From: a virus
Lineage: Duplodnaviria; Heunggongvirae; Uroviricota; Caudoviricetes
DNA length: 37,100 nt
IMG/VR virus record: IMGVR_UViG_2718218139_000003
Strand: one strand, 5' to 3'
Shown here: positions 9,113 through 37,100 of the stretch, piece after piece
How positions within the stretch are numbered: the stretch's first letter is position 1
How the letters are laid out: the number at the start of each line of letters is the position of its first letter
Made by a program: the position numbers and the translations under genes
Notes under the pieces: generated by a model
Databases searched by the model: none
What the model saw: the letters and a program-made list of their open reading frames with translations, nothing else
Told to the model about the DNA's origin: nothing

Positions 9113-9118
9113 GGAGTC

Positions 9119-10342: not shown

Positions 10343-10350
10343 AGTACATA

Positions 10351-10385
10351 AAGCCATCTATATTTCTGTCGATGGCTTTTTCTCT
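10351..10385 (+). terminator. Rho-independent terminator (aagccatc...gatggctt + TTTTCTCTTT), potentially bidirectional between the acetyltransferase and G
   Basis: 8-bp stem followed by T-tract immediately after the acetyltransferase stop. Confidence 0.55.
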
Positions 10386-13101: not shown

Positions 13102-13103
13102 GC

Positions 13104-14523: not shown

Positions 14524-14526
14524 GAT

Positions 14527-16096: not shown

Positions 16097-16547
16097 CCCA
16101 CGTCACATCCTGGAATACATGCGACCAGTCGCCTTCGGAAGAGGGCAGACGGGGTTTTGGCTCCGGCAGGTGTTCTGCCTGCGGTGTGCCCTGACTGCTG
16201 CGCGTGATGCGAACGCGTTCCCGCAGGGGGAGCGTAAACAGGAGATCGGCGCTGTCATCGTCATTGATAACGGCGGAAAATTTGATGTCCTGATTACGCT
16301 CCGGATTGAGCAACAACTGTGGCTGATTTTCGGATAACCACGCCAGCAGCGGCAGCGTGAGGTCGTCCAGCTCTCCGGCGTAATCCATGACAAACATCAC
16401 CATCTGATAGCGGTAAACAAACGAGGGCGTTTCTCCGGTCGTTTCAATGTTGCCGCTCTCCACGAAAATGGTGAATTTTTCCGGGTTAGCCTGACACCAT
16501 CGGCATGAACGGGTCATGGCTTCACGCAGGGAATCAGTTTTCAGCAT
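16080..16547 (-). CDS. R: Tail completion protein (P2 gpR-like)
   Basis: 155 aa; synteny. Confidence 0.65.
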   Translation of the reverse strand: MLKTDSLREAMTRSCRWCQANPEKFTIFVESGNIETTGETPSFVYRYQMVMFVMDYAGELDDLTLPLLAWLSENQPQLLLNPERNQDIKFSAVINDDDSADLLFTLPLRERVRITRSSQGTPQAEHLPEPKPRLPSSEGDWSHVFQDVTWGESDG

Positions 16548-17091: not shown

Positions 17092-17480
17092 GCCGGATAG
17101 GCTCCGTGTGGTAACTGAAAATGCGGTCCGTCTTTCAGGGTCTTCCAGTCGCCGCCCCATTCCACCGGAATATTCAGTTCCCGGCTGGCCTGTCTGAATG
17201 CTGCTGCGATTTTTTCGTACAGCGGCCATTCCCATGACACCTGGCTGCCGATATAAGCCACAACATCCACGGCATGTCCCGTAAGGTGGCGGCTGTTCAT
17301 GGTCTGGCTCTTACCTGTGGCCACAAGTTGCTTCTGGCGGTAACGGCTGCGCAACCCTTCGGTGATACCAAAATCCACTTCCGAAATTTCCAGTGCCCGT
17401 CGGGTCACTTTCACCAGATCAGGATTTACGCCCTGCAAATTCTTTTCGCTCCGGCTGCTGAATTTAAATGTGTTGCTCAT
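17088..17480 (-). CDS. Endolysin, peptidase M15-type (L-alanyl-D-glutamate / D-Ala-D-Ala peptidase fold)
   Basis: 130 aa; SRHLTGHAVDV motif characteristic of zinc peptidase M15 endolysins; located in the lysis cassette. Confidence 0.7.
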   Translation of the reverse strand: MSNTFKFSSRSEKNLQGVNPDLVKVTRRALEISEVDFGITEGLRSRYRQKQLVATGKSQTMNSRHLTGHAVDVVAYIGSQVSWEWPLYEKIAAAFRQASRELNIPVEWGGDWKTLKDGPHFQLPHGAYPA

Positions 17481-17800
17481 TCGTCCTTCTCCTTCACCCT
17501 GCGATTAAAGGCCGCAATAACCTTGTCGCGTGCTTTCTCTGCACCCATAAAACCGATTGATGCGCCGATAAACGTCACGGCATCTTCAGGAAACCCGAAG
17601 AAGCGCAACGACCCGGCCACGGCCATGGCAAGAACGCCGCACGCCAGCGATCCCGTTACGGTCTGAACCAGTGTTCGTCCGTCATAAAGACTCATCAGCG
17701 CGGAAATGCTGACTGCCGCGCCTACTGCATACACCGTTGGCAGGTGGTCAAAGAGCCATGCAATAACCTGCTCTGTGATCCCTGTTTGAATGGTGCTCAC
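17477..17800 (-). CDS. Holin (two predicted TM helices); GTG start at 17800
   Basis: Small protein with two hydrophobic helices and charged C-terminus immediately upstream of the endolysin. Confidence 0.55.
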   Translation of the reverse strand: MSTIQTGITEQVIAWLFDHLPTVYAVGAAVSISALMSLYDGRTLVQTVTGSLACGVLAMAVAGSLRFFGFPEDAVTFIGASIGFMGAEKARDKVIAAFNRRVKEKDE

Positions 17801-17802
17801 TG

Positions 17803-18003
17803 CTACTCCCCCCACAACTGAATCATTTCTCGTTTCTTCTTCTCCGGCTCCGGCATCTCCACTTCCTGCCCGGCGTCCAGAAATACCTGCTGACAGAGTC
17901 CGGGGTTGGCATCCAGCACCTTTTCGGTGACGCCCTGCGTCGTGCCGTAGAACCGGAAACAGAGCGAATCCACGGTGTCGCCTTCCTGTGCCTTCACTTT
18001 CAT
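17803..18003 (-). CDS. X: Tail protein X (P2 gpX-like)
   Basis: MKVKAQEGDTVDSLCFRFYG... small protein between L and the lysis genes. Confidence 0.65.
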   Translation of the reverse strand: MKVKAQEGDTVDSLCFRFYGTTQGVTEKVLDANPGLCQQVFLDAGQEVEMPEPEKKKREMIQLWGE

Positions 18004-18506
18004 CAGCACAACTCCGCAAAGATTCGCGGGCGGCACAGAATGTCAGAGATGGCCCAGCTCACATCGCGCCACAAATCCGATGTCTGTATATCCAGTGCGT
18101 CCGCCCGGCGGTCGCCCTTGTCCGTTGTGTCCGCATCGCGGTAACGCTCCAGAATCAGGGCGCGTGTGGCGGTGTAAACCGCATTGCGCCAGTGCCAGAG
18201 ATTGACGCTTTCTCCGTTAATTACGGGTGCCGGAACATCGGCCAGCGTCTGATGGCCAGCCGTCTGCTGTTCCTGCTGCCACGCTTCCAGCTCGCGGGTA
18301 ACGTGTGCCACGGCCCCGGTGGCGGTATGCAGCAGGCGGGAGGTGGTCACACGGCCCGGCAGTCGTATCGCCAGACGCAGCTCACGCAGCACAATATCCG
18401 GCCAGAATGCACCCGCTGAAATACGGGTATCACCATCATCGGTATCGGTGATGTCGTCCTCTGCGGGTCCGGGGTTGGTTCTGGCAACCATACTCATGGG
18501 GTTCAC
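18003..18506 (-). CDS. L: Head completion/stabilisation protein (P2 gpL-like)
   Basis: 167 aa; synteny. Confidence 0.7.
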   Translation of the reverse strand: MNPMSMVARTNPGPAEDDITDTDDGDTRISAGAFWPDIVLRELRLAIRLPGRVTTSRLLHTATGAVAHVTRELEAWQQEQQTAGHQTLADVPAPVINGESVNLWHWRNAVYTATRALILERYRDADTTDKGDRRADALDIQTSDLWRDVSWAISDILCRPRIFAELC

Positions 18507-18598
18507 TCCTGAAAAAATCGGGCGGTGGGTGCGCGGTGTAAACGGTCACGGAGTCAAACCGGAACACCGCGCACGCCGCCCGCTGACGGGGTCAGTCG

Positions 18599-19399
18599 TT
18601 AACCGCGCTTCGCCTTCTGCGTCGCGGTGGTTTTTCGTGTTGCAGGCTTCCGCGTTGTCTTTTTACTTTTGCTGCTTTCGTCCTGCGCCTGCGGTGTGCT
18701 GGCATCTTCTGGTGCGGCTGCGGAATCGGCTTTTTTCAGGGCGCGGGAAAGGGTTGCAATCTCGCGTTTCACGCCTGCGTTCGGGTTCAGGTGCATCGCT
18801 TCGCGCAGCAGCTTCAGTGACAGGGCCATGCTGTCCGCATCACTCAGACCACGACGGGCAAAGGCGCACGCCTTGCATAATTTGGCGCGCACTTCGTCCG
18901 GCATGTCCTGGTCTGTGACAATCTCCCGGAGGGTGTCCAGTGGTTCGATAAAGGCGGACAAATCTGCGTCGGCATCCGTCCCGGCCTGTGTCAGTACCGG
19001 GTTGCAGATTTCTTCGGTCAGTACCGTGGCAGCAGTACGGCCAAAGTTATCCGGCATGATGAGGTTGTGACGGACCACATACGCACCAATACGCAGCGCC
19101 AGCGGAAGATCGCCGCAGTCAATCGCCCACACCATCAGCGTGGCAATCACTTCATCCTGCTGCCCGCCGTCAGCCTCCAGCGTTCCCTCAATCCAGCCGG
19201 AAAAGTCCGGCAACAACTCTTTTTTGATGGCGGCTTTCGCACTTCTGGCCTGTACGCCATTAAGCCGGGCCTGTGCCAGACGCAGACGATACAGCACCTC
19301 TTCATGCGCGGTACGCGCGGCGTGGTCAACGCCTTCATTCGCCCGGCCTGCGCGCTGTGCCATCACGTTCTGCCAGTGTTGCTGTGCAGGAGTAATCAT
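18599..19399 (-). CDS. M: Terminase small (endonuclease) subunit (P2 gpM-like)
   Basis: Synteny between N and L; basic C-terminus. Confidence 0.7.
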   Translation of the reverse strand: MITPAQQHWQNVMAQRAGRANEGVDHAARTAHEEVLYRLRLAQARLNGVQARSAKAAIKKELLPDFSGWIEGTLEADGGQQDEVIATLMVWAIDCGDLPLALRIGAYVVRHNLIMPDNFGRTAATVLTEEICNPVLTQAGTDADADLSAFIEPLDTLREIVTDQDMPDEVRAKLCKACAFARRGLSDADSMALSLKLLREAMHLNPNAGVKREIATLSRALKKADSAAAPEDASTPQAQDESSKSKKTTRKPATRKTTATQKAKRG

Positions 19400-19444
19400 T
19401 TTTTCTCTCCGTTACAGGCGGGCATGATGCCCGCCGTGAGTTGA

Positions 19445-20497
19445 TTAGCTGTCGGCGAACTTCAGGCCAGTGACCATCGCGCACTTGCCATAGTCTTCAA
19501 CGACATAAGCGTCATTGATGGACTGGTAGGTGGCGATGCGGTTGTATTCCGGTTCGTCTTTCATCAGACGACGCATTGAACCTTTCTGCCAGTAAATCGA
19601 CAGGTTGTTGAATGAGGTGATCAGCATCGTTGCATCCGGGAAGAACGGCGCAAGGAACACGCCCAGCCCGCCAATGGTGCGCGATGACAGGATGAGCTGC
19701 CCGGCAAGTAATTCCGCATTGGGATTCTGGCCGCTGATGCTGTTCAGCACGGGCAGACGCAGCGAGTTAAACAGGTTGCGCCCCATAATCACCACGAGGT
19801 CGTCAGCTTCCTTGTGCCATTCATCCAGCAGGGATGAGCGCGCGTCCTGTACCAGTGCATCAGGGTTCGCATACTTACCCGCGTGCGCCACGGTGTTGTC
19901 CATGTTGCGGGAGGTCAGCGTCACGTCATTCATTACGCGCTCGCTGGCGTCGGCTCTGATGTGCTCCAGCCATCCCACGTTAACGTCCTGAAGCAGTTTG
20001 TTAGTGCTGAAGTTGGACTCATCTGCGTGAGACGTGCCGTTGAAACCGATCATGATGCGGTCAAGCGCCACCTGCCGGGCAATCTGTGCGCTGATGCGAG
20101 ACTGAAAATCGCTGTGTGCCGACCAGGCATCAAGCTGCGGATACGAAATAAACGTGTCGTAGTTCACCTGTTCGCACTGGTATTTGCGGTTTTTCAGATC
20201 AACCACGTTATTCGGGTTACGGCGTTTTGTGCCGTCATAACTGGTATTCGTGCGCGCAATCGGTCCTGTGGTATCCAGGAGGATTTTTTCGCCTTTCTGG
20301 TCGGTCACGCCGATCACGTTAATTCTTTTCGTTAATTCTGTGCTGTCCTTTGAGGCGTTTTCAAAACGCTGCTGCACCGCGGGTTCCACGGTAAATCGCG
20401 ATACCAGTGCAGATACCGGGATATTGTTAAGCGACGCCTGCTGCGCCATATAGCAACCCAGCTTGTTGCGGGTAATATCTGACATCACCAGATTCAT
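19445..20497 (-). CDS. N: Major capsid protein (P2 gpN-like)
   Basis: 350 aa; synteny. Confidence 0.8.
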   Translation of the reverse strand: MNLVMSDITRNKLGCYMAQQASLNNIPVSALVSRFTVEPAVQQRFENASKDSTELTKRINVIGVTDQKGEKILLDTTGPIARTNTSYDGTKRRNPNNVVDLKNRKYQCEQVNYDTFISYPQLDAWSAHSDFQSRISAQIARQVALDRIMIGFNGTSHADESNFSTNKLLQDVNVGWLEHIRADASERVMNDVTLTSRNMDNTVAHAGKYANPDALVQDARSSLLDEWHKEADDLVVIMGRNLFNSLRLPVLNSISGQNPNAELLAGQLILSSRTIGGLGVFLAPFFPDATMLITSFNNLSIYWQKGSMRRLMKDEPEYNRIATYQSINDAYVVEDYGKCAMVTGLKFADS

Positions 20498-20519
20498 AAA
20501 AATTTGCTCCTTTGTCTTA

Positions 20520-21356
20520 TCAGAAGTCAGCCAGCTGGTCGGAGGCTGCGCCTGTTGCGGTGAACCGGTTCTGCGGATCGCCGTCCTGCGTGCGCAGTTT
20601 TTCCTTCAGTGCTGTCAGCTCTGTGGTCAGTGACGTAATTTTCTGGCGGTCCTGCTGATGGCGGGTTTCCAGCACATTAAAACGGTCGATAATGTCGGCC
20701 TGTGACGTTGCGACGCCTTCCACCGCTTCCTGAATACGGGAAAAACTGGCGTCATCCGCTTTGCGGCCACGGCCAATAATCCCCATTACGCGGTTAAACC
20801 ACTGGGTGCCTTCTTCCTGGCGTTGTTCTGCCATTTCGATGATTTCAGACTCGATGGCTTCGGAGATAAGCGGCGCTTCACCCTGGACACTGTTGAACGT
20901 CATTACCGCCTGACGTTGCTGTGCCGTGAATTTCAGGCGCTCAGTGCCCAGGCTTGCCGGGGTGTCGGTCATCGCCAGCCCGACCAGATAGGCGCGCCCG
21001 TTAACGGAGAACTGCGGGTGCAGTTCGATACTGGAATAGATTTTCTTGCCGTCCGCGACAAGCTGCTTCATGCGCTCGGTCGGTTCGATTTCTGCATACA
21101 GCGCAGTACGTCCGGCCAGCGGACCTTCCGTAATGTCTTCCGTACTCAGTGCGGTGACATCGCCCATTGCGGAAAATTCGCTTGACGGGCATGGCGAGAG
21201 ATAGTGCTCAACGTTCACGCGGGCAGCGTAAACATCCGGGTTGAAGTTCTCGGCGGCTTCACGCAGATGCACCGGACTGATTTCACGGCCATCAACAGTT
21301 GATCCGGAGACAGCCACGCGAAACTTTTTGCGGGATGTCTTTTTTTCATTAGCCAT
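20520..21356 (-). CDS. O: Capsid scaffolding protein (P2 gpO-like); start taken at MANEKK with RBS agagggg
   Basis: Synteny; divergent from terminase P. Confidence 0.75.
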   Translation of the reverse strand: MANEKKTSRKKFRVAVSGSTVDGREISPVHLREAAENFNPDVYAARVNVEHYLSPCPSSEFSAMGDVTALSTEDITEGPLAGRTALYAEIEPTERMKQLVADGKKIYSSIELHPQFSVNGRAYLVGLAMTDTPASLGTERLKFTAQQRQAVMTFNSVQGEAPLISEAIESEIIEMAEQRQEEGTQWFNRVMGIIGRGRKADDASFSRIQEAVEGVATSQADIIDRFNVLETRHQQDRQKITSLTTELTALKEKLRTQDGDPQNRFTATGAASDQLADF

Positions 21357-21510
21357 AGTTTTTGCCCCTCTGACTGGTTCTTCAGTCATGATGGCAAAGC
21401 GTAACAGGCTGATACAAAGGGCTTTTGTTGTAAGAAAACGGCCAGAACAGGGGGTTAAGGAGAACGGTTTCGCGCGCGGGTAATCTTCCTGTAATTACTC
21501 AGGGGGAGCA

Positions 21511-25406: not shown

Positions 25407-25814
25407 TTATCTTTTATAGCCTTGCCCCTTCCTGGCCAGCGCCCTGATGGCCGGGCGTGCCAACACCATATTTTGGCAATGATGAATTGCCCGGCAAAAT
25501 TCATCTCTACCCATTGGATGCTCAACTGGCAACGTTAAATACAGGTTCCATGCGTCGCCTAAAAGTTGGGCTATCTTTTGTTCTTCAGATGTCAGCAAGC
25601 AAGCGGTATCCGTAAAATAATCATACTTTTCATGTATGTTATTTAACGGTTTTGTCTGTAGTGCAGCCTGAGCTATACGGTATGCCTGAAGCATACTGGC
25701 GTCGTTGATATCCATTCCGAACGGAATTTCTGATGATTGTGACTCTGCATCTTCAAGCCTGGCAATTTCTTTACGTAAGAAGTATTTCAACTCTTGTTTC
25801 TGTTTTCTGTTCAT
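25407..25814 (-). CDS. Hypothetical protein, 135 aa, translationally coupled (4-bp overlap) to the upstream zinc-ribbon gene
   Basis: ORF with ATGA-type overlap; no recognised motif. Confidence 0.5.
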
Positions 25815-26143
25815 GCGTTTTTTTCCTTTTTGTCTGTCACTTCTTTCCTGATAATTTCATTGCACAAATCCACGCACTCATTGCAGATGTAAACAGACGG
25901 TCCGGCAATCACCTTTGTGACTTCGTACTGGGATTTATTGCAGAAACTGCAATAAACCGTCTTCTCGCCTGAAGTCCATGTTTTGCTGGTTTCGCCAGAC
26001 ATCAGTTGTTTGAGGTCTTTTTCACGACGAAGAACTATCTGGCCACATTCAGCTATTTTTTGGATGTTGACATTTTCTTCTTTCGCCAGCGCTTCCATCC
26101 GCTCAATCAGTCGCTGCGCTTTTTCTCTGTCAATGTGTTGCAT
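25811..26143 (-). CDS. Small protein with a C-terminal ClpX-type C4 zinc-binding domain (ZBD-like) fused to an unrelated helical N-terminus
   Basis: Residues about 63-100 [40 protein letters not shown] nearly match the ClpX N-terminal zinc-binding domain as I recall it ([39 protein letters not shown]); strong RBS aaggggga. Confidence 0.7.
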
Positions 26144-26206
26144 TGTGTCCCCCTTGTTTATGCTCCCGGGTTAAAGTCATCAGGGCGGATGCGCCCTGAT
26201 GTTGTG

Positions 26207-26518
26207 TTATTCGGGAAATAACGCCCGGATATTTCCGGCCATCTGACTGGTTATCTGTGCGGCTGATACTGGCTGTGACGCGGGGCGTTCTGTCCTGGTT
26301 TGTGTCACTGATAACGCCTCATCATCAGCCCATGCAGCCAGTCGGTAAGCCTCTGCCGGATTCATTTTCAGTAGTGCCAGCCCGGCCAGAAAAGCCACGC
26401 GTTGGCCGCTTTTGCGGGCTTCTGGTGTAAGGCTGTCCAGCCAGGCGCATGCTTCGCCTTCGTTCTTGACGGCGGCGGGCTTCAGATAGAAACTTATCCG
26501 TCTGGTTGGTGTCGGCAT
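26207..26518 (-). CDS. ParR/StbB-like centromere-binding adaptor (103 aa)
   Basis: RISFYLKP...LDSLTPEARKSGQRVAFLAGLALL...IRALFPE parallels plasmid R1 ParR as I recall it; start 4 nt after the ParM-like stop with RBS aggag. Confidence 0.6.
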   Translation of the reverse strand: MPTPTRRISFYLKPAAVKNEGEACAWLDSLTPEARKSGQRVAFLAGLALLKMNPAEAYRLAAWADDEALSVTQTRTERPASQPVSAAQITSQMAGNIRALFPE

Positions 26519-26522
26519 TGGT

Positions 26523-27482
26523 TTACTCCTTGTCCATTGCGTACAGCCCATTAACCAGAGCAAACTGTGGCACCCCGTCCGCGATGAAAGTCGCATTAAC
26601 TCCGCAGGCTTCGCGGATAGCGGGTGCCACAATCTCCGCTCCGCCACCGACAACCATCACCCGCCCGTAACCCGAAAAACCCGCCAGCGCGCGGATCACG
26701 CGTTGTTTCAGTGTTTCTTCCTTTTCACGAATAACCGCCATCAGGCTGGCGTAATGCGCGTCATTGTGGATGTGCTGGCGCAGCCAGGCTTCATCATGGC
26801 GATGTTCGATAATGGTATTGGCGATGTGGTGACTGGTACGCATACCGTTAGTGGCCATCACCGACAGTACGGCATCGGCCATCAGGGAAACGCCTACGTG
26901 TGGATCGCAAAACACCTGGCTGATACCTGCCAGTTGTCCCTGAACCTTTGCCACATCCAGCGTGGTTCCGCCCAAATCCACAATCAGCAGGGATTCAAAC
27001 GGACTCATGTCAGCCAGTGCCTTAAAGCCAGCCGGAATGGATTCAGGCATAACCCGTACATTACGGATAGTGAATGCCTTACCGTTCTGGTACTCCACCG
27101 GGCGCATGACGTTCGCTTTTTTGCGGTTGATGTTGGCCATGTCCGGCTGTGCGTTTGTGTCGAAATACTCGCTCAGTGGCAGGGTGACAACCACATCCAC
27201 TTCCTGTGGTGTGATGCCTGATTTGACCAGCGCGTGATGAATGGCAATTACATTCACATCGCTGTACTGGTATTGCGTGTCGGTCGTCTGGACAAAGCGA
27301 TCGCTGATCGGATCAAAACCATAGCGCACGCCATCAAGCATGTAGTTCGCAGGCTGTGAGCCACCGAACGGCGCAGACCATTCCGACTTGAAGCTGTTCG
27401 GGCTGATGGCGTTGCGGCGTTCGCCGTTCTCAGTCCATGCCAGCTTGATGTTGGTGGAGCCGTCGTCGATACAAATTTTCAT
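26523..27482 (-). CDS. ParM/StbA-like actin-family segregation ATPase (319 aa)
   Basis: N-terminus MKICIDDGSTNIKLAW and downstream ISPNSFK, FDPIS, YSDVNVIAIHHAL...EVDVVVTLPL blocks parallel plasmid R1 ParM (MLVFIDDGSTNIKLQW...). Confidence 0.75.
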   Translation of the reverse strand: MKICIDDGSTNIKLAWTENGERRNAISPNSFKSEWSAPFGGSQPANYMLDGVRYGFDPISDRFVQTTDTQYQYSDVNVIAIHHALVKSGITPQEVDVVVTLPLSEYFDTNAQPDMANINRKKANVMRPVEYQNGKAFTIRNVRVMPESIPAGFKALADMSPFESLLIVDLGGTTLDVAKVQGQLAGISQVFCDPHVGVSLMADAVLSVMATNGMRTSHHIANTIIEHRHDEAWLRQHIHNDAHYASLMAVIREKEETLKQRVIRALAGFSGYGRVMVVGGGAEIVAPAIREACGVNATFIADGVPQFALVNGLYAMDKE

Positions 27483-27512
27483 GTCGCTTTTCCTTATGTT
27501 GGTTAATTAACC

Positions 27513-27626
27513 GTTTACGGGATTCTGAAATCCCGTTTTTGCCTGTTTTGTGCGCGCTTCATATATCGCTGCGCGTTTTTTGCTCATTTACGGGATTCGT
27601 GAGTCCCGTTTCTGTCTGTTTTTTGT
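27513..27626. repeat. Two about 41-bp direct repeats (27513-27553 and 27586-27626), each with the inverted repeat ACGGGA-N8-TCCCGT; candidate parC-like centromere/operator
   Basis: Seen directly; located immediately upstream of the ParM-like gene. Confidence 0.5.
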
Positions 27627-28023
27627 TTCCACTGGTCAGGCCACCCCGCAGCAGGTCTGCTTTGCGGCGGGCGCGTTCAGTGGTTTCACTGATTCTCTGT
27701 GCGTGCTCTGCGTCGCGGATGGCGCGCAGCATGTCAGAAAGCACGGTAACGGGTGTTTTCATGGTGTTCTGGTCCTGCTGAAGTGTGGATGCCAGGCGTG
27801 CGGCGGCTTCGGGGTCTGATGCCCCCAGCTGTTCCAGATAGCTGGCGACAGGGTTATGGCGGATCTCCGTGCTGCTTACGCCGTGATTACGGCTCAGGCG
27901 TTGCCAGAGCTGCGTGATTCGGCTGTCCGGGCGGGTATCCGGTTTGCGTACAATTTCAAATCCCTGCGGTGCAATGATGCTGCCGTCAACGTACAGACTG
28001 CCGCCCCGTAACAGGTGCAGCAT
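27559..28023 (-). CDS. Hypothetical protein, 154 aa; 3' end overlaps the second direct repeat, so the true extent is uncertain
   Basis: ORF only; weak RBS; low-complexity C-terminus. Confidence 0.3.
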   Translation of the reverse strand: MLHLLRGGSLYVDGSIIAPQGFEIVRKPDTRPDSRITQLWQRLSRNHGVSSTEIRHNPVASYLEQLGASDPEAAARLASTLQQDQNTMKTPVTVLSDMLRAIRDAEHAQRISETTERARRKADLLRGGLTSGNKKQTETGLTNPVNEQKTRSDI

Positions 28024-28083
28024 CTGCTGTTCACCAATATGTAGGCCGAGAGATTCAGCAGACTCCCGCCATTCTTTAGCGAG

Positions 28084-28268
28084 TCACTCGTGGTTATCAG
28101 GCAAAGGTCGCGGCTGTTTGCGGCTCTGTGTCCAGTTCTGCATTTCATCACTGTTGTTTTTTGCCTGTTTGTCACGCAGCGAACGCATCAGCGCCCGGCG
28201 TTCGTGCCGTTTCAGTGAGTGCAGCCATTCGTTCACTTCAACACCGTCAGGGATCTGCGGCCACGGTG
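28084..28268 (-). pseudogene. A: Replication initiation protein A, C-terminal 61 codons separated from the rest by the IS600 insertion
   Basis: Frame joins in-frame to 29533-31648 when the IS and one copy of GTG are removed. Confidence 0.7.
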
Positions 28269-28332
28269 TGAGGTAGCCTGAGTTTAACGGACACTCCTTC
28301 CTGAAATAGAATGGCATCAGAAGGAGCTAATA

Positions 28333-28635
28333 ATGAGCAGAAAAACCCAACGTTACTCTAAAGAGTTCAAAGCCGAAGCTGTCAGAACGGTTCTTGAAAA
28401 TCAACTTTCGATCAGTGAAGGCGCTTCCCGATTATCTCTTCCTGAAGGCACTTTAGGACAATGGGTTACCGCCGCCAGAAAAGGGCTCGGTACTCCTGGT
28501 TCCCGCACGGTGGCTGAACTGGAATCTGAAATTCTGCAACTGCGTAAGGCGTTAAATGAAGCTCGCCTTGAGCGAGATATATTAAAAAAAGCAACAGCGT
28601 ATTTTGCACAGGAGTCGCTGAAAAATACGCGTTAA
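28333..28635 (+). CDS. IS600-like transposase OrfA; A AAA AAA -1 frameshift site at 28584-28590
   Basis: Identical protein to 4384-4686. Confidence 0.8.
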   Translation: MSRKTQRYSKEFKAEAVRTVLENQLSISEGASRLSLPEGTLGQWVTAARKGLGTPGSRTVAELESEILQLRKALNEARLERDILKKATAYFAQESLKNTR

Positions 28636-28670
28636 TCGAACAATGGCGACAACAATTTCCCATTGAAGCG

Positions 28671-29489
28671 ATGTGTCAGGTATTTGGTGTATCCAGGAGC
28701 GGTTATTACAACTGGGTACAGCATGAACCCTCAGACAGAAAACAAAGTGATGAGCGGCTAAAACTGGAGATTAAGGTGGCACATATCCGCACTCGCGAAA
28801 CATATGGAACCCGGCGGCTCCAGACGGAGCTGGCAGAGAATGGCATCATCGTTGGTCGTGACCGACTGGCACGTCTTCGTAAGGAGCTAAGGCTACGCTG
28901 TAAGCAGAAACGCAAGTTCAGAGCGACTACGAACTCGAACCACAATCTGCCAGTTGCGCCAAATCTGCTGAACCAGACGTTCGCTCCTACAGCACCAAAT
29001 CAGGTCTGGGTGGCGGACCTGACGTATGTTGCCACACAGGAGGGATGGTTGTACCTCGCTGGCATCAAAGATGTTTATACGTGCGAAATTGTCGGCTACG
29101 CCATGGGAGAGCGCATGACAAAAGAGCTGACAGGTAAAGCCCTGTTTATGGCGCTCAGGAGCCAGCGCCCACCTGCCGGGCTAATCCACCACTCTGATCG
29201 AGGTTCACAGTACTGCGCATACGATTACCGGGTCATACAGGAGCAGTTTGGTCTGAAAACATCAATGTCGCGTAAAGGTAACTGTTACGACAACGCTCCG
29301 ATGGAAAGCTTCTGGGGAACGCTGAAAAATGAGAGCCTGAGCCACTATCGTTTTAATAACCGGGATGAAGCCATCTCAGTAATACGGGAATACATTGAGA
29401 TTTTCTACAATCGTCAGCGTCGTCACTCTCGTCTGGGGAATATCTCCCCGGCAGCCTTCAGGGAAAAATATCATCAGATGGCTGCTTAA
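28671..29489 (+). CDS. IS600-like transposase OrfB
   Basis: Identical protein to 3530-4348; frame open from 28572, overlapping orfA in -1 frame. Confidence 0.8.
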   Translation: MCQVFGVSRSGYYNWVQHEPSDRKQSDERLKLEIKVAHIRTRETYGTRRLQTELAENGIIVGRDRLARLRKELRLRCKQKRKFRATTNSNHNLPVAPNLLNQTFAPTAPNQVWVADLTYVATQEGWLYLAGIKDVYTCEIVGYAMGERMTKELTGKALFMALRSQRPPAGLIHHSDRGSQYCAYDYRVIQEQFGLKTSMSRKGNCYDNAPMESFWGTLKNESLSHYRFNNRDEAISVIREYIEIFYNRQRRHSRLGNISPAAFREKYHQMAA

Positions 29490-29532
29490 AAAAAGAACAA
29501 ATGGTAGTGTCCGCTATTGCCAGTACACCTCA

Positions 29533-31648
29533 GTGCTGGCCGTTCTTCCGGCTGTTCTGTCCCGTTGTTGTCCGTTTCCTGTACACGAGGACAGTTATTG
29601 CCACGAGTCCAAGGGGCGGCAGGGCCGCCCTGAAGGTCAAAACCATTTTCGCGGGCGCTGTCTTCCACTTCCGGTTTACGTCTTACCAGCTTCCAGTTAT
29701 CCGGATGCGTGCACACACGGGAGGATTCCCCGATGAATGGCGACCAGATCCCGTAAATCTGTACACTCTGTTCGCCGTAATCGTTCAGCTCATCTGCGAG
29801 GTCGTAGGCGGTGCGAATCAGGTAGTCCTTGCGCGGAACAAGTACGCCACCCTGTTTTTCAATGTAGGTGGCAAAACATCCGGCATCAGCGGCAGCGAGT
29901 ACCGCATCCATTGCGTCATCCTTCAGCCGTTGCGGGCCTTCCGGGTTGCGTGCCATCTGGCTGGCAAGGCGGCGGAGTTCACGCCACACCTGACGGGAGG
30001 GGATGCCAAAGAACTGGAACTGGCGGACCCGGTGAAGGCGCGCCCAGCCGATGGCGCGCTCCACACTCTCGGCCATTGATTTACCTGTTTCGTGTTCAAC
30101 GCGTGGCTTGCCCGTTTTCGGGTCGATGCCATCCACGGCACGGCTGTCCAGGTTTTTCCCTATGTAGGTGGCGATGTAGCTGGTCGGTGTGCCTTTTGAG
30201 CCGTCGACGTACTCCGCCTTAAAGCGTGGGGTAATATCATCACCCAGCTCGTGACGATCTTCCTGAATGGCAATATCGCGGGTGTGGGACACAATGGTGT
30301 CGATTTCTTCCGGATGTGCAAAGACCATCATATGCCAGTGCACGGTGCCGTCATGGTGAGGCTCCACCGTGCGGATGCCATACCAGCGCAGGCCGTCGCG
30401 GTTCAGTTTCTTGCGGACCGCCGCAAAAAACGTGTTAACCAGGTAATCACTGGAGTCGCGCATGGTGGCCCCGTTCCATTTGGGATTCGGATGACCGTTC
30501 TCTGTTGTGGCGTGGTATTTTGACGGGCAGGTGACAGTCAGAAACACCGCTCTGTCGCCACGGGCTTCGGCCAGAAGTTCCAGCCCCTTCATGGTGGCCA
30601 TCATTTCTGCCTTACGGTGAACCGGGTTACTTACTCCCGCGTAATACACCGTTTCGAGATCAATCGTGAACCCATCTTCATTTTCCAGCATGAAACTTTT
30701 CAGGAAATCGCGTGTTTTCTCGCGCTGTGCGCGAAACTCGCTTAACGCGTCCTGGCTCAGATAGGGTGATGTTTTTCTGGAAACCAGACAGGCGGCGCGG
30801 AGTTGTTCTTCTCTCCACTCGCAACGTAACAGCCACAGTTTGCGTTTCCACCATTCCGCACAGGTCAGGCGAAGGATTGCGCCCGGCAGCAGCTCCGTGT
30901 CCGGTTCGTTCCTCCGGTCTTTGTCTGTTGTCAGTGCGTCATAATGCGGAGGCATGGCGTGCAGGTGTAACGCCATGCGGGCCAGCATTTGATACGCCTT
31001 CAGCGTTACATCCATGGTCAGCTCGCCATCAGTCGCGCCAAAGCCATCGCAGAGTTTTTCGAAGGTGCTGCTGAACATCGCCGCCGTCATGGTGGCCAGC
31101 GTCTGTATCTGGTGCTTGTTGAGCTGCGGCAGGTAAAGCAAATCGTCCAGGCGTTCGCGTCCGGCAAGGGAGCGATAACCCGGTGTCAGCCAGCGGTGGT
31201 CGGTGCGGTCCAGACGTTCGAATATTTTGCGCAGGGTTCCGCGCGCGTAGCGTTCAGCCTGCCAGCTCTTTTTGCCTTTCCGGCGATCGGCTTCCTGTTT
31301 TTTGCGCAGGAAGGAGAGGTGGCGAATAAGCGGATCGCGCAGATAGGACGGCAGCAGGCGCAGCGAGGCCATGGCTTCATCCACCGCACCGCGTGCCTGT
31401 TTTCTGGCGTCTCCTGCCAGTGTGATGGTTTTGTCCTGTTTTTCCTGTGCGTCCAGGCTTTTATTAATCAGGTTGCCCAGCGGCGTGGCGGAGAATGCCG
31501 CATCAGCCATTTCCTGGCGGCGCTCGTTCTCTGCCCGGTAGGCATCCAGCCAGGAGGAAAGCGCGGATTCAGGAGCGGGGATCCCCGTTCCTTCACGCCC
31601 CACTGCGTGGCGCGGTTGTTGCCAGTCCCTGATGTACTCTGCCGTCAT
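29533..31648 (-). pseudogene. A: Rolling-circle replication initiation protein (P2 gpA-like), N-terminal 705 codons; interrupted near the 3' end by IS600
   Basis: HUH-type motif HDGTVHWHMMVF; size about 766 aa when rejoined with 28084-28268. Confidence 0.75.
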
Positions 31649-31654
31649 AGTGAT

Positions 31655-32020
31655 TTACTTCGTCATGCCATTCAGGGTGTCGCGGCAGACTGTAGCCAGC
31701 CGCTGAATTTCCAGCACGGTGTCTTCTGTGTCGGCATGGCGATGTGTGATGCGGATGCTGTCGGCAATCACGTCGACGATTGCAGAGGATGGGCGCTGGT
31801 AAATGCCAATAACGGACGGGGTGCCACCTTCAATGCGGTAAAGCCTGTAATTTCCCTCATGGCTGTCGATCATGTAGCGACCATCAATAACAATTTTTCC
31901 GTCAGCGAGCTGCGGTACAGACAGGGATTTCAGGTACATGTCATAACGATCACGCACGCGAGCGGCAAGATCACGTTCTGTGTTGAGCAGGTATTCAAGA
32001 AAGTCGTTGGCGAGAATCAT
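31655..32020 (-). CDS. Hypothetical early-operon protein, 121 aa
   Basis: ORF in operon context immediately upstream of A. Confidence 0.45.
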   Translation of the reverse strand: MILANDFLEYLLNTERDLAARVRDRYDMYLKSLSVPQLADGKIVIDGRYMIDSHEGNYRLYRIEGGTPSVIGIYQRPSSAIVDVIADSIRITHRHADTEDTVLEIQRLATVCRDTLNGMTK

Positions 32021-32092
32021 TGCGGCAATCCTCTTGTTACAGATGTGCGAAGGCCTCCCGCCGCAAGGTGCAGGAAAGGCCCGGAACAGGAA

Positions 32093-32323
32093 TTAATGGA
32101 GTTTGTTTTGCTGCTGGATGAGATCCTGAAGAGACAGGAGGTCTTCCGCCAGATAGCTGAATACAGCGGCGCAGTAGTCGGCTGAAATAGTGCTGTTGAG
32201 TCTGTGCAATGTGTTGGATTGCATGATAAAGGCGATGTGTGCGGCGCGGGTGAGTCTGCGATCGATTTCAGTCTGGATGTGACGACGCTCCGCGATAGCG
32301 CGGTGCTGTTTGCGGTTTGCCAT
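32093..32323 (-). CDS. Hypothetical early-operon protein, 76 aa
   Basis: ORF in operon context. Confidence 0.4.
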   Translation of the reverse strand: MANRKQHRAIAERRHIQTEIDRRLTRAAHIAFIMQSNTLHRLNSTISADYCAAVFSYLAEDLLSLQDLIQQQNKLH

Positions 32324-32644
32324 GGTGTGGCCTCTTTGCTAGTAAGTTTTGAAAACTCACCATCCAGAGCTGCGAAACTGTGGGTGGCGAGACGTACGAG
32401 GTTCGCAGTACCGGCTAGCAAAGAACCCGGCCCGACCGAAGTCGGCCCCGTACGCCCCGCCATAATTCGTGTGCGAAAAAGACGTGGCAATACAGTACGC
32501 ACAAAAAAACCGCTGGCGCGGTTGTGCGCTTTGCTAGTCAGCAGGCTGCGAAACCCGGCACCCGTTTTATGAGGTGCAGCGGGAATGTAACCTGACTGAT
32601 TGCGGCATGGCAAGCGGTTTTTTGTGTGTGCATGTTCTGGTTTC

Positions 32645-32944
32645 TTACTGGTTCAGAAAAAAATCAAAAACCTTGTCAATGCGTTGCAGCAGCTCTTGCT
32701 GTATTGCTTCCGGTGTTTCCGGTTCGCCTGGCGCCTCCAACGTCGCGCAGAAATCAGCGATTTCATGATGGAGCGTCAGGCGAATGGCAGGAGCCGTGGT
32801 TCTGGCGTGCTCCGGCTCATCCAGCAGTGCCAGCACAGCAGACGGCGAGAGCATTGCGCGAAATGCCAGTAATTTTTGAGGCGTTGCCATTCGTTGCAGG
32901 GCAAATGCCAGTTCGCGTAGCTTCTGGTGGTTGATGGTGCTCAT
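32645..32944 (-). CDS. Hypothetical early-operon protein, 99 aa
   Basis: ORF, 4-bp overlap with upstream gene. Confidence 0.45.
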   Translation of the reverse strand: MSTINHQKLRELAFALQRMATPQKLLAFRAMLSPSAVLALLDEPEHARTTAPAIRLTLHHEIADFCATLEAPGEPETPEAIQQELLQRIDKVFDFFLNQ

Positions 32945-33207
32945 GCTCTGGCTTCCTTCAGTAGCTGGTTAAACATGTGAGTAAGTGGATTGCTACACCC
33001 GAACGGCATCGGGTTTACGTGGTAAGAAGCCTGGCCTCCTGTTTTGCGAGCGCGACCACCTGTGCTGCGGTTTGTTCTGATGACTAAGCCGCCGCGCCAA
33101 AGTCGGCGTAACTCAGCATTAATGGCTGTGGTTGGGGTATTCAGTGCTGCGGCGATCTCTCCGCCGCTACACCCCGGATGAGTAGCGATGTAGTCCAGAA
33201 TGGTCAT
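32941..33207 (-). CDS. Hypothetical small DNA-binding-like protein, 88 aa
   Basis: ORF, 4-bp overlap with neighbours; helix-turn-helix-like N-terminus. Confidence 0.4.
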   Translation of the reverse strand: MTILDYIATHPGCSGGEIAAALNTPTTAINAELRRLWRGGLVIRTNRSTGGRARKTGGQASYHVNPMPFGCSNPLTHMFNQLLKEARA

Positions 33208-33407
33208 CTGCGTGGCTCCTGTACCTGTCGGATAAGATTTACTCGCGCCACGTTGGTGGCGCAGAAGTAAGTGCCGTCAGTGAGGTAGATGTGGTGTGCA
33301 TCCTTTTCCGAACGATGTTTGTCGATAGTGGTAATCAGGCGTTCGTCGACCTCGTATTCGCGCCCTCTGGAGGTAAAGCGAACGACGGAAAAATGCTTAA
33401 TTGCCAT
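33204..33407 (-). CDS. Hypothetical early-operon protein, 67 aa
   Basis: ORF in operon context. Confidence 0.4.
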   Translation of the reverse strand: MAIKHFSVVRFTSRGREYEVDERLITTIDKHRSEKDAHHIYLTDGTYFCATNVARVNLIRQVQEPRR

Positions 33408-33430
33408 TGCGCCCCCTTTGTCCAGTAACC

Positions 33431-33847
33431 CTATGCGTTAAATACGGCACGTTGCGCGTCATCAATGAATACAGCTTGAGAGCGTTCTATCAGGCGGAGA
33501 TTTGTCAGAAGCTCTGACTCTTTTGTGTGGTAAGGCGTTATCAGGTATTTGCCGTGCAGTTCGGCAATAATGGTGTATCGCAGCATCATTGCTGAACCAA
33601 GAATATAAATGCAGCGTCCAATGCTGGACGGATTCATGGCTGCAACTGTTGACTGTGTTTTAAGAGTGTCGATTTCTTTGCTCTGTTCCTCAATAATTTT
33701 GGCTGCTTCAGAGGTGGCTATTGCGATGGTCAGTGCGTAAAGCGCTGCCATATGTTGATTATCTTTCTGGGCTGCCCTGGACAGCTTGTCTTGCTCTGCT
33801 GACACTATTTTTAATGTATTGATAATATTTTTTTCTTTTGCGTTCAT
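33431..33847 (-). CDS. Hypothetical coiled-coil protein, 138 aa
   Basis: ORF; AT-rich codon usage suggests acquired gene. Confidence 0.45.
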   Translation of the reverse strand: MNAKEKNIINTLKIVSAEQDKLSRAAQKDNQHMAALYALTIAIATSEAAKIIEEQSKEIDTLKTQSTVAAMNPSSIGRCIYILGSAMMLRYTIIAELHGKYLITPYHTKESELLTNLRLIERSQAVFIDDAQRAVFNA

Positions 33848-33939
33848 TTTATATCTCCGTTATTTACGTGTGCGAATACCTCCGCGAATGCGGATAGTTT
33901 TCAGGTTTTCGGGTTTAATCTGGTGTTTTGTTTAAGCTG

Positions 33940-34053
33940 TTATTTGTCAGTGAAAAAGCGTTCAATCTTTTTTACTGAATGAATAATTCGCATAATCCCA
34001 ATGGCGCAGGCCACCGAAATAATCAGAACAAGCCATGAGATAAATATACTCAT
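33940..34053 (-). CDS. Small hydrophobic peptide, 37 aa (MSIFISWLVLIISVACAIGIMRIIHSVKKIERFFTDK), translationally coupled to the upstream gene
   Basis: RBS GGGGA 7 nt before ATG; ATGA overlap with the stop of 34050-34292; single predicted TM helix. Confidence 0.4.
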   Translation of the reverse strand: MSIFISWLVLIISVACAIGIMRIIHSVKKIERFFTDK

Positions 34054-34292
34054 GCGATATTCCCCAGCTTATACGGTTTAATGTGTTCCCCGCATTCTGC
34101 GGCACAGATCAGCTCGGAAAGTTCGTTAAGTGCATCCAGATCATCAGCGTAAAAAGCGACGTCATACAAACTCCGGATTGCCCTGGTCAATGAGTCACGG
34201 GCTGCACGTTCAGCATGAGCGCCTGATGCACTTAAGCGAAAATAAAATCGTTCAAGTGCTTTATTAATGAGAGTTTTATATTCTTTGCCCAT
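34050..34292 (-). CDS. Hypothetical early-operon protein, 80 aa
   Basis: ORF in operon context. Confidence 0.45.
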   Translation of the reverse strand: MGKEYKTLINKALERFYFRLSASGAHAERAARDSLTRAIRSLYDVAFYADDLDALNELSELICAAECGEHIKPYKLGNIA

Positions 34293-34303
34293 CGCAACGC
34301 CCT

Positions 34304-34642
34304 TTAATCTGCTTTCTGAATTTCAGCTTCTGAATCCATACAAATAATTTCGATATAGGGTTCATCGCCATTAACCTGACGTGCCTTTTCAGCTTCGCTA
34401 ATGATTTCTCGTACGGTCTGGTACGGAAGCTCCACAGTCAGGCGCGTACCGTTCAGATAAACGTAAGTAGCTGCGTTTTTTTCGGATGGAACAACTCCGT
34501 CAATGGCTGATGCGCGTAATAACAGTTCACCGCGAAAATCAATAAAACGGATAAATACACCTTGTGCATGCTCTTTGGTCATAAAGCACCTGTTATAAAT
34601 CAGCCTGTTTAATAAAACTTTGCCCGCGAAGCAGACGATCAA
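34304..34642 (-). CDS. Hypothetical early-operon protein (alternative start MTKEH at 34582)
   Basis: ORF in operon context. Confidence 0.4.
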   Translation of the reverse strand: MIVCFAGKVLLNRLIYNRCFMTKEHAQGVFIRFIDFRGELLLRASAIDGVVPSEKNAATYVYLNGTRLTVELPYQTVREIISEAEKARQVNGDEPYIEIICMDSEAEIQKAD

Positions 34643-35078
34643 CCGTGCGAAGTGCTTCGTATAATGTGAAATCCTGCCCGAAGTGATTGTCGCCGCAGCT
34701 CAATGCAAAAATGCGGTTTCCGGTAAACGGATTGCGTGGGCATTTGTGGACCACGATTCCAGCTTTCTCAATCAGCCAGGCATGCTCGCCGATTTGTTTT
34801 ACAGCGTGGCCATCCGGTGTTGCGTGTGTTTCGCTCAGGCTGTAGCGATAGTTGCTACGCGATGCACTGGTAGCGAAACGGTTAGCATGGCGTTCCGCCC
34901 CGTTGCGGAAGCGTTGCTGTGAAGAATTGCACTGTTGCTTCATGTCAAAAACTCCGTACCTATTTACTTCCCCGGCATAACGCCCATTTTCAAAGTAATT
35001 GCGACGAAATCCCGTGTTATGTGGCTTGCCATTTCGCTGTTGCTTATTCATTTTTCGCGCCTCTACCCGATGAGCCAA
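34593..35078 (-). CDS. Hypothetical early-operon protein, about 161 aa; occupies the position of P2 replication gene B
   Basis: ORF; position third in the early operon. Confidence 0.4.
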   Translation of the reverse strand: MAHRVEARKMNKQQRNGKPHNTGFRRNYFENGRYAGEVNRYGVFDMKQQCNSSQQRFRNGAERHANRFATSASRSNYRYSLSETHATPDGHAVKQIGEHAWLIEKAGIVVHKCPRNPFTGNRIFALSCGDNHFGQDFTLYEALRTVDRLLRGQSFIKQADL

Positions 35079-35269
35079 ATAACAAACGCCATGAGCACCG
35101 CGCCAATGGTGATCGGAAAAAGACCTCTGGCATAAGCGGCGAGGTAATGAACGTTGAGAACAATAAAGCGTTCTTTTTGTCCTGTTAGCTTGCTAAGCAG
35201 ATAAATCGCTATTACACCCACTTCTAGGAACACAAGGTCCAAAATGGCGCTGGTGATATTGCTGGTCAT
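35063..35269 (-). CDS. Small membrane protein, 68 aa (two hydrophobic helices)
   Basis: ORF; hydrophobic composition. Confidence 0.4.
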   Translation of the reverse strand: MTSNITSAILDLVFLEVGVIAIYLLSKLTGQKERFIVLNVHYLAAYARGLFPITIGAVLMAFVIWLIG

Positions 35270-35275
35270 TTATGA

Positions 35276-35563
35276 TTAAAGCCCCAGCCACAACAACCAG
35301 GCATCGCGGCGTTCTTTCGGCTGATCAAAAAACGCTTTGCGCATACCTGCGTTAAATGCTGGCAGATATACCCAGTTTTCTGATGCTCGCGTCTTCACTG
35401 AACCTGGTTTCACAAAGTCAATCGTTGGTAACTTTGCAGCGTCAATCATGGTTCTGACGGTTGATTCTTTGCGACCAATCATCTTGGCAAATAGTTGATA
35501 TGGCACCGCTTCAAGTGGATATGGTGCTACCTGAATGAACCCCTCAAGCTCTGATTCGCTCAT
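35276..35563 (-). CDS. Cox/Apl-like small DNA-binding regulator (first gene of early operon)
   Basis: 95 aa, divergent from the repressor gene; helix-turn-helix-like AKMIGRKESTVRTMIDAAKLP. Confidence 0.5.
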   Translation of the reverse strand: MSESELEGFIQVAPYPLEAVPYQLFAKMIGRKESTVRTMIDAAKLPTIDFVKPGSVKTRASENWVYLPAFNAGMRKAFFDQPKERRDAWLLWLGL

Positions 35564-35660
35564 TGTGGTAATCTCCTTAATTCGTCCAAATGGCCCAAAA
35601 TGGCTTATATAGGCTTATTTTGGCTATTTGAATGTTTTGTATTACATGTAACCCAATAGC
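35564..35660. promoter_or_regulatory. Lysis-lysogeny switch region with divergent promoters; three direct repeats of GGCTTAT(T)/GGCTATT as candidate repressor operator
   Basis: aaatGGCTTATAtaGGCTTATTtTGGCTATTtg between the divergently oriented cox-like and C-like genes. Confidence 0.45.
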
Positions 35661-35999
35661 GTGGAGTTTAGATCACATATGATCCATAAATCAAGCCTTG
35701 GAGAAAAACTTCGCCTGATTCGAGAGGCAGAGGGATTGTCACGTAGAGAGATGGAAGAGGTGACAGGGGTATCTCAAAACAATCTCAAAAATTATGAAAT
35801 ATTGGGAAGAATGATACCTGGAGAAACGCTACTCCTGATTTTGAATCATCCTCGTTTTCGGAAGTATTCGGATTGGGTGATGTTTAATCAAACTAATGCT
35901 GCGACGGGGCAGATTGCTCCGCCTCTCTCTCTTGATGGCTTCTTTGATTCGGAGGGCGATCAGGTTTCAACCGAAACAAACCAAAAATCACCCCGCTAA
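35661..35999 (+). CDS. Immunity repressor (P2 C-like, XRE-family helix-turn-helix)
   Basis: HTH LGEKLRLIREAEGLSRREMEEVTGVSQNNLKNYE; located upstream of the integrase and divergent from the early operon. Confidence 0.65.
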   Translation: MEFRSHMIHKSSLGEKLRLIREAEGLSRREMEEVTGVSQNNLKNYEILGRMIPGETLLLILNHPRFRKYSDWVMFNQTNAATGQIAPPLSLDGFFDSEGDQVSTETNQKSPR

Positions 36000-36080
36000 G
36001 GCCAGAAAACTGGTTAGACCTGCTCTTTGTCTGGTCTGATTATTGCTGGAAAGAGGCTGGAGAAATTGTAGAGCGGTTCA

Positions 36081-37100
36081 TTGGAGGGCTTCGCAATGTC
36101 AATTAAGAAGCTCGAAGATGGTCGTTATTTGCTGGACATCAGGCCGAACGGACGCAAGGGAAAGCGCGTGCGTAAGGTATTTGACAAAAAATCGGTAGCG
36201 GTGGCCACTGAACGCTACATCATGGCGAACGCTGAAAAGCGGGAATATATACAGGGCTACCGTGATCGCCGAACGCTAAATGATTTGCTTGAGTTGTGGT
36301 GGATGTATCACGGTCAACATAGGCGTAAGGCGGAAGAAGACCGAAAACAACTGCGCAACATAATCAATGAGCTTGGCGCTGATATGCAGGCTGTGGATCT
36401 TGATAAGCTGAAAATTATCGCGTGGCGTTCTCAAAAGATAGCTGTTGGATTGAAACCGTCATCTGCTAACAGGTACATGAATCGGTTATCCGGAATGTTT
36501 ACCGTGCTGAAAAAAATAGGTCTTTGGGATGCAGAACATCCGGTAAGGGGAATTTCTATTCTTTATGTATCTCCACGAGAAATGGCGTTCCTGTCACAGA
36601 AGGAAGTGGCGCTATTGCTCGATACACTGGAGGGCGACTACTGGCGTGTTGCGCTTTTGTGTTTAAGCACAGGGGCGCGCTGGAGTGAAGCCTGTAAGCT
36701 TCGTGGTGAACAGATAGTTCATAACCGTGTAACGTTTCTTGAAACCAAAAATGGCCGAAAGAGAACAGTGCCAATTTCGCAGGCAGTTTGTGAGGCGATC
36801 AAAACCAGAGAAACAGGCGGCTTGTTTGAGGTGAAGTACCGGGAATTCTGCTTGGCGCTGAAAAGAGTTAAGCCCGATTTACCAAAAGGCCAGGCTGCAC
36901 ATGTGCTGCGGCATACGTTCGCCAGCCATTTTGTGATGAACGGAGGAAACATTATTGCGCTTCAGAAGATTCTTGGCCACGCAACCATTCAGCAAACAAT
37001 GGCATATGCACATTTTGCACCGGATTACCTGCAGGATGCGGTGGCCCTTAATCCGCTGAAAGGTGGCGTGAGTGTCCACGCAGTGTCCACGGGGGATTAA
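36081..37100 (+). CDS. int: Tyrosine site-specific integrase
   Basis: C-terminal catalytic region AHVLRHTFASHFVMNGGNIIALQKILGHATIQQTMAYAHF (R...HxxR...Y); adjacent to repressor at the prophage end. Confidence 0.8.
   Translation: MEGFAMSIKKLEDGRYLLDIRPNGRKGKRVRKVFDKKSVAVATERYIMANAEKREYIQGYRDRRTLNDLLELWWMYHGQHRRKAEEDRKQLRNIINELGADMQAVDLDKLKIIAWRSQKIAVGLKPSSANRYMNRLSGMFTVLKKIGLWDAEHPVRGISILYVSPREMAFLSQKEVALLLDTLEGDYWRVALLCLSTGARWSEACKLRGEQIVHNRVTFLETKNGRKRTVPISQAVCEAIKTRETGGLFEVKYREFCLALKRVKPDLPKGQAAHVLRHTFASHFVMNGGNIIALQKILGHATIQQTMAYAHFAPDYLQDAVALNPLKGGVSVHAVSTGD

Follow-up and report, generated by a model that had tools for sequence, protein, structure and literature searches.

An IS600 insertion in replication gene A as one of several inactivating lesions in a P88-type prophage of Escherichia coli

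The 37,100-nucleotide (nt) stretch of Caudoviricetes DNA recorded as IMGVR_UViG_2718218139_000003, hereafter the window, carries a P2-like prophage whose replication gene A is interrupted by a copy of the insertion sequence (IS) IS600. This prophage is very probably a cryptic remnant of the P88 type that has been inactivated several times over, with several independent lesions among which the IS600 in gene A is but one; in all, the IS is one of at least four inactivating lesions. As to mechanism, IS600 transposed by the normal route of the IS3 family into codon 705 of gene A and made a 3-bp GTG duplication. The gene product thereby loses 235 of its 940 residues at the C-terminal end, and the element of 1.26 kb now lies 74 nt from the inferred nick site at the origin of replication (ori). 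A TTA>TGA change at codon 766 is a second, independent lesion in the same gene, while a second IS600 is associated with the loss of ogr (the late-gene activator), of D and of the 5' two-thirds of the sheath gene FI, and the tail-fibre gene H is frameshifted. The initial annotation of this DNA had taken the prophage to be replication-defective through the IS: that it can neither replicate nor produce phage remains almost certain, but with at least three further lesions present the IS can no longer be named as the sole cause. The window derives from contig PVMG01000001.1 of the whole-genome-shotgun-level assembly GCA_003015325.1, and the host is E. coli according to the NCBI names attached to a protein identical to the 154-amino-acid (aa) orphan described below.

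The IS600 copy inside gene A occupies 28269-29532 on the plus strand and is complete, all 1264 of its 1264 nt (100%) being the same as in copies labelled 'IS3-like element IS600 family transposase' on plasmids of Shigella sonnei and E. coli. Its first bases are TGAGGTAGCC and its last bases GTACACCTCA; the ends are imperfect inverted repeats of the form 5'-TGAGGT...ACCTCA-3', the arms of which share the 6 terminal nt and further blocks, and the window contains either end motif in exactly 2 places, against 0 expected by chance. Within the element, orfA (28333-28635, plus strand) codes for a 100-aa protein with an HTH_Tnp_1 domain (PF01527, E = 1.5e-20), and orfB (28671-29489, plus strand) for a DDE/rve transposase of 272 aa from its first ATG (PF00665 rve, E = 3e-26, together with HTH_21); orfB lies in the -1 frame relative to orfA (frame 0 and frame 1, respectively), with an A7G slippery run at 28584. 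In full-length identity, TG...CA ends, the paired helix-turn-helix orfA and DDE/rve orfB with the slippery motif, and a 3-bp duplication, this is the IS600 of Shigella and E. coli (IS3 family, IS3 group), and only the insertion site differs from the known copies.

The target site bears out a simple transposition. A GTG stands on either side of the element, at 28266-28268 on the left and 29533-29535 on the right, and 3 bp is the usual length of the IS600 target duplication. A match of 3 bp alone would be seen by chance in 1 of 64 cases, and hence the empty site is the decisive test of the duplication. In phage P88 (NC_026014) the left flank of the insertion (window 25646-28268) corresponds to positions 878-3500 of the aligned locus and the right flank (29533-32628) to 3498-6592, i.e., the two flanks are contiguous on P88 and overlap by exactly 3 bp. 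The empty site there reads GGCCACG[GTG]CTGGCCG with one GTG, and the E. coli relatives likewise have a single GTG. Given this single GTG and the 3-bp overlap, the IS600 copy in gene A is the product of a simple transposition. The initial annotation had placed an IS600 with an intact GTG duplication at 28266-29535, and those coordinates are exact; its further statement that the insertion was a simple transposition and not a recombination product is sound for this copy and has to be limited to it, since a second IS600 in the window lacks a duplication. In the literature, nothing directly usable was found on the IS600 target duplication or on the extent of the P2 minimal ori.

Gene A starts at 31648 on the minus strand, and the duplicated GTG corresponds to its nt 2114-2116, so that the element sits in codon 705 and does split a replication gene, as originally proposed. 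The 5' fragment, codons 1-705, is 99% identical to residues 1-705 of a relative's 940-aa protein and reads into the IS as a 720-aa fusion open reading frame (ORF; 29486-31648, minus strand), whose last 15 residues are IS-derived (...PALRCTGNSGHYHLFFF). Past the IS, codons 706-765 (28087-28268, minus strand) are in frame with this fragment after excision: removing the IS and one GTG in silico gives a single open frame of 765 aa (766 with both GTG), with a complete Phage_GPA domain (PF05840, E = 3.3e-131, residues 179-503). The initial annotation had expected the flanks to rejoin into a gpA-like protein of about 766 aa, and an open frame of that kind indeed exists, but it is not the restored gene. 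In the three comparators used for gene A, namely P88, E. coli STEC2018-607 (the closest E. coli relative) and E. coli ETEC4090, the intact gene measures 2823 nt or 940 aa, and the excised window from 31648 down to 27559 aligns with STEC2018-607 over 2823 nt as one gap-free block of 97.4% identity. Codon 766 (28084-28086, minus strand) is TTA (Leu) in STEC2018-607 and a Leu codon in ETEC4090, whereas it is TGA in the window; thus the rejoined frame ends at 765 aa because of a TTA>TGA nonsense change and not at a natural stop. What lies beyond, codons 767-940 and the natural stop (27559-28083, minus strand), is an orphaned 3' part that is co-linear with the 940-aa genes of all three comparators and encloses a 154-aa ORF (27559-28023), which has been deposited as the 'hypothetical protein' AOM57146.1 and is the orphaned C-terminus of A. 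A stop in the rejoined frame was the very thing that the initial annotation had named as speaking against its interpretation, and precise excision would not restore A, as it would still give a protein without the last 175 residues. The similarity in length between the 765-aa frame and P2 gpA (761 aa) is coincidental.

Against the replication endonuclease gene of P88 (SF19_gp16, 940 aa) the window copy shows 96.6% DNA identity over the 5' 2.1 kb, and once the IS is removed it has equal length and register over the 2823 nt and the same neighbours; however, the gene of P88 is intact and the phage viable, whereas in the window copy codon 705 harbours IS600 and codon 766 is TGA. Mitomycin induces P88, plaques are formed, and the burst size is about 65 (PMC5285337); the 940-aa form is therefore the functional one. 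With its frame interrupted at both of these codons, gene A of the window is a pseudogene of the gpA family.

The part that has been lost also appears to be conserved across the gpA family rather than to be a dispensable tail. The P88 orthologue matches PHROG 91 ('nicking at origin of replication') with E = 1.7e-272, in an alignment that extends to the profile's end. Its residues 706-940 cover profile positions 667-852 (E = 1e-22), of which the stretch 722-852, the last 130 positions, is matched by the 154-aa orphan (E = 1.8e-14). A Pfam scan of the orphan gave no match, and no NCBIfam family was returned for the 940-aa protein or for its C-terminus. To gauge how rare the stop is, 5,426 complete E. 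coli genomes were searched with a 41-mer that has the mutated base at its centre, so placed that no 28-nt seed can miss it. The mutant 41-mer was found in none of these genomes, and the same is true of the interrupted arrangement with IS600 at this site; the wild-type 41-mer, used as a control, was found in 265 of the 5,426, every match lying within a 'replication endonuclease'. About 1,400 of the complete genomes carry gene A, which among the matches listed is a single uninterrupted 'replication endonuclease'.

The proteins of a related E. coli prophage were also searched one by one against the window with tblastn. Most head, lysis and tail genes are intact, with 94-100% protein identity to that relative. 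The first exception is marked by a second IS600 (3487-4750, minus strand), identical to the first at 1264 of 1264 nt, inverted relative to it and located 23.5 kb away, which has no duplication, its flanks being ATT (3484-3486) and GTG (4751-4753). Compared with E. coli VTB97432v, which has a prophage at the same flk-side site, this copy stands in place of 2364 bp (positions 10844-13207 of the VTB97432v locus) that comprise ogr, D and codons 1-241 of FI. Accordingly, D and ogr have no tblastn match anywhere in the window, and the tail-sheath gene FI is truncated to residues 242-394 (4751-5212, plus strand; Pfam Phage_sheath_1C and a tblastn match to query residues 242-394). Either a deletion adjacent to the IS or a recombination between two direct copies may have produced this state. 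The relatives' D is itself short (266 aa), with an adjoining pseudogene fragment. The second exception is the tail-fibre gene H (10964-13101), in which comparison with the related prophage reveals a 5-bp tandem duplication, ATGAC, at 12487-12491 on the minus strand; this shifts the frame and leaves ORFs of 245 and 413 aa, the 245-aa product being found in independent assemblies as well (GCA_002486255.1 and SRR3372144).

The prophage can be assigned to the P88 type (Xuanwuvirus, Peduoviridae, P2-like) and placed between flk and pdxB of E. coli. Apart from the IS, the window is co-linear with P88 over 25646-32628, so that it resembles P88 in both identity and synteny, and the neighbours of gene A are those found in P88: ParM, a ParR-like protein and a ClpX zinc-finger protein downstream, and a derepression protein and a 121-aa ORF upstream. 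The gene set of a viable phage is nonetheless incomplete, A being disrupted twice, ogr and D absent, FI truncated and H frameshifted. A 20-bp attachment core, AAAATCCTTGTTGATGAAAA, is present at 1916-1935 and again just past the window end next to pdxB. With the core at both ends excision might still be possible, while replication and particle assembly should not be: the prophage would be unable to replicate if, as seems probable, the truncated A is inactive, and it cannot make particles because ogr, D, FI and H are missing or broken.

Some points weigh against this account of the prophage, and they bear chiefly on gene A. The HUH motif (H437-W-H439, at 30326-30340) and both active-site tyrosines (Y491-IAT-Y495, at 30164-30178) lie upstream of the IS, in the 5' fragment. 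They align with the HWH motif and with Y450/Y454 of P2 gpA, the two tyrosines to which catalytic roles are reportedly ascribed in that protein. A gpA cut at residue 705 or 765 is presumed to be inactive, and the proposed position of ori follows from homology. Moreover, the alignment of P2 gpA reaches only residue 800 of the P88 protein, the extreme C-terminus varying between genera. Finally, in the searches of complete genomes and of contigs with the orphan ORF, no genome was found with only one of the two A lesions, be it the IS or the TGA, that would put the insertion and the nonsense change in order.

The position of the catalytic motifs upstream of the IS speaks for the view that the truncated A, with residues 1-705 and 15 residues from the IS, still nicks ori and starts rolling-circle replication, the C-terminal third being accessory. 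The P2 protein (761 aa) is an HUH rolling-circle initiator with ori inside its own gene, and the protein of the window, with its Phage_GPA domain, HUH motif and paired YxxxY tyrosines, shares 30% identity with it over about 700 residues, with both motifs aligned. In the P2 record A appears as an 'essential protein' nicking at ori, and a 'nick site at ori' is annotated at 29892, i.e., at codon 620 of the 761-codon gene. Around this nick, 30 of 38 nt, including AATAACTGT, match the window at the homologous codon position (29591-29628, minus strand), so that here too a candidate nick-site region lies inside the gene. A conserved nick-site sequence has been reported among P2-like phages (PMC8537503). 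By this homology the nick would fall between 29610 and 29609, around codon 680, with the IS600 duplication 74 nt further downstream in the coding direction. The predicted product thus keeps the catalytic core, the whole Pfam GPA domain (179-503) and the putative nick site, and loses the conserved C-terminal quarter. In favour of its activity, the last ~140 residues of the P88-type protein, which is 179 residues longer than P2 gpA, are not alignable with P2. On the other hand, residues 706-940 match PHROG 91 through to the profile end, no truncated allele is seen among the complete E. coli genomes (none with the mutant 41-mer, and single entries among the matches listed), and an IS only 74 nt from the proposed nick may disturb ori in cis; even with replication, no particles would be possible. 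We therefore hold an active truncation to be unlikely and the truncated product to be probably inactive.

It is much more doubtful that the IS600 was the sole inactivating event in an otherwise functional prophage with an intact gene A of about 766 aa, such that excision of the element would restore both A and the phage. The in-frame rejoining of the flanks, with a full Phage_GPA domain and a length near that of P2 gpA, is what speaks for it. Against it, all of the close relatives fetched, the viable P88 included, have 940 aa in a gap-free alignment and the frame ends at a private TTA>TGA change; in addition ogr, D and two-thirds of FI are missing and H is frameshifted. These findings refute it.

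Comparably slight is the chance that the insertion has a meaning of its own, either because the site was non-random (IS3-family elements targeting origin-proximal or hairpin-forming DNA) or because the 720-aa HUH fragment has been kept as a domesticated nickase or interference factor against incoming P2-like phages. Neither targeting nor domestication is positively supported. The insertion was met once, in a single clone, and the A proteins entered as 'partial' in databases are truncations at contig ends. The latter point emerged from a candidate IS hot spot near ori, suggested by the many 'partial' A proteins of 624-787 aa in the 90% cluster and then rejected: all 12 that were inspected keep to native A sequence up to their last residue, and none has a tail contributed by an IS. 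The target as reconstructed by joining window 28255-28280 to 29533-29545 does have its GTG within the 6-nt spacer of a 6-bp inverted repeat, CGGCCA-CGGTGC-TGGCCG; this repeat may be a coincidence, and the uninterrupted FI site of the other copy has no such repeat.

A still less probable account derives the IS600 in A from recombination or rearrangement between IS600 copies, for instance from an inversion between the inverted pair. The window does contain two identical IS600 copies in inverted orientation, the other of which lacks a target duplication, and IS copies of that kind are often footprints of rearrangements. Yet GTG borders the copy in A on both sides, and the DNA around it is co-linear with, and in the same orientation as, that of P88 and the E. 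coli relatives. An inversion would have given this copy mismatched flanks (CAC or ATT-derived) and reversed the gene order between the two copies; neither is seen. The FI-FII-E-T-U tail block (4751-9613) is indeed on the strand opposite to the other late genes (10386-21389), an orientation that differs from P2; however, it is common to relatives without IS600 (29645-35220 in locus L003 and 12485-17843 in the VTB97432v locus, L004) and is a feature of the lineage. A recombination origin is thus refuted for the copy in A, while the copy at 3487-4750 may still be such a product.

It is barely credible that errors of sequencing or assembly, confined to a single long-read assembly, created the premature stop, the IS junction or both. 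The source record is indeed at the whole-genome-shotgun level and its arrangement is absent from the RefSeq complete-genome collection, but the junction recurs in a short-read contig from run SRR31456477, which agrees with the window throughout 6697 bp, the TGA included, and so refutes the idea; moreover, the 154-aa orphan ORF is found on 11 contigs and under two GenBank protein accessions. Three of these 11 contigs are megabase-scale and have the gene layout of the window, and the other 8 are short-read contigs. The one examined among the latter (from the Logan collection) begins at window 28296, 28 bp inside the IS600, which is where a short-read assembler breaks at a repeat, and has 0 mismatches with the window. 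By this match and the 11 contigs, both A lesions are real features of a repeatedly sequenced clone; among the genomes searched both are private to that one clone. Identity to the closest intact alleles is 98.8% for the upstream fragment and 98.6% for the downstream one. Relative to the closest allele of the downstream part (ETEC4090), 7 differences are synonymous and 3 non-synonymous, with the stop among the latter; the upstream part does not differ in this respect (Fisher p = 0.42). Without an excess of non-synonymous change over the upstream part, there is no sign of a long neutral decay. An apparent relaxation of selection in codons 706-940 was rejected, as the excess is seen only against P88 and STEC2018-607 and is gone against ETEC4090, pointing to allele mosaicism.

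A remnant of this kind has parallels in other cryptic ('grounded') prophages, which show the same mix of IS insertion, IS-adjacent deletion, nonsense change and frameshift in a genome that is otherwise well preserved, and nothing distinguishes the present case from them. Every component is of a known kind, i.e., IS600, a Xuanwuvirus prophage, a gpA-type HUH initiator and ordinary prophage decay, and is already explained. The prophage of the GCA_003015325.1 lineage may accordingly be treated as a non-inducible remnant of little importance beyond annotation, where gene A is better recorded as one pseudogene (27559-31648) than under separate entries for a protein of 720 aa, an ORF of 77 aa and a 'hypothetical protein' of 154 aa. 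There is also a lesson of method in that an open frame of plausible length after in silico excision did not suffice, and it was the comparison with intact orthologues that exposed the hidden second lesion.

Several further features of the region deserve mention. Directly downstream of gene A on the minus strand are parM (26523-27482), a gene for a ParR-like/Plasmid_stab_B protein (26210-26518) and one for a protein consisting only of the ClpX zinc finger (25811-26143). Together they constitute an actin segregation module of the plasmid type in an integrating P2-like phage, which is kept in P88 and in the E. coli relatives. Two near-identical, hairpin-forming 20-nt repeats, ACGGGAnnnnnnnnTCCCGT, lie at 27517-27536 (in the spacer between A and parM) and 27590-27609 (at the 3' end of A), 73 nt apart; these may serve the ParR-like protein as a parC-like centromere, or else act as terminators. 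On the other side of gene A, two Rfam matches above the gathering score are present on the minus strand at 32380-32467 and 32503-32577, one to C4 antisense RNA (82.8 bits) and one to isrK (65.5 bits), and the 'derepression protein' ORF of 76 aa (32093-32323) lies just downstream of them; the region looks like a P1-style antisense-RNA/antirepressor module inside the early operon of a P2-like phage. A third Rfam match, IS009 (192 bits, full length; 10423-10621, minus strand), falls within the 3' portion of the gene for tail-fibre assembly (10386-10964), which suggests that this 'sRNA' (small RNA) family is really a piece of prophage coding sequence.

Outside the prophage, the host gene yfcJ (1-822, plus strand), which codes for a transporter of the major facilitator superfamily, has become a pseudogene through an out-of-frame internal deletion of 355 bp near position 665 relative to other E. 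coli (7666-8020 of the VTB97432v locus are missing). Within the prophage, variable cargo is found at two places: at 9669-10391 there is a hexapeptide-repeat (acetyltransferase-like) ORF (9737-10342) where a relative has a GT9 glycosyltransferase, and at the flk-side end (2044-3486) there are a DNA methyltransferase, a Com-family regulator and hok. The Shiga-toxigenic (STEC) relative has an integrase and immunity region unrelated to the one here (about 34900-37100), the integrases being 40% identical, and the prophage is thus a mosaic.

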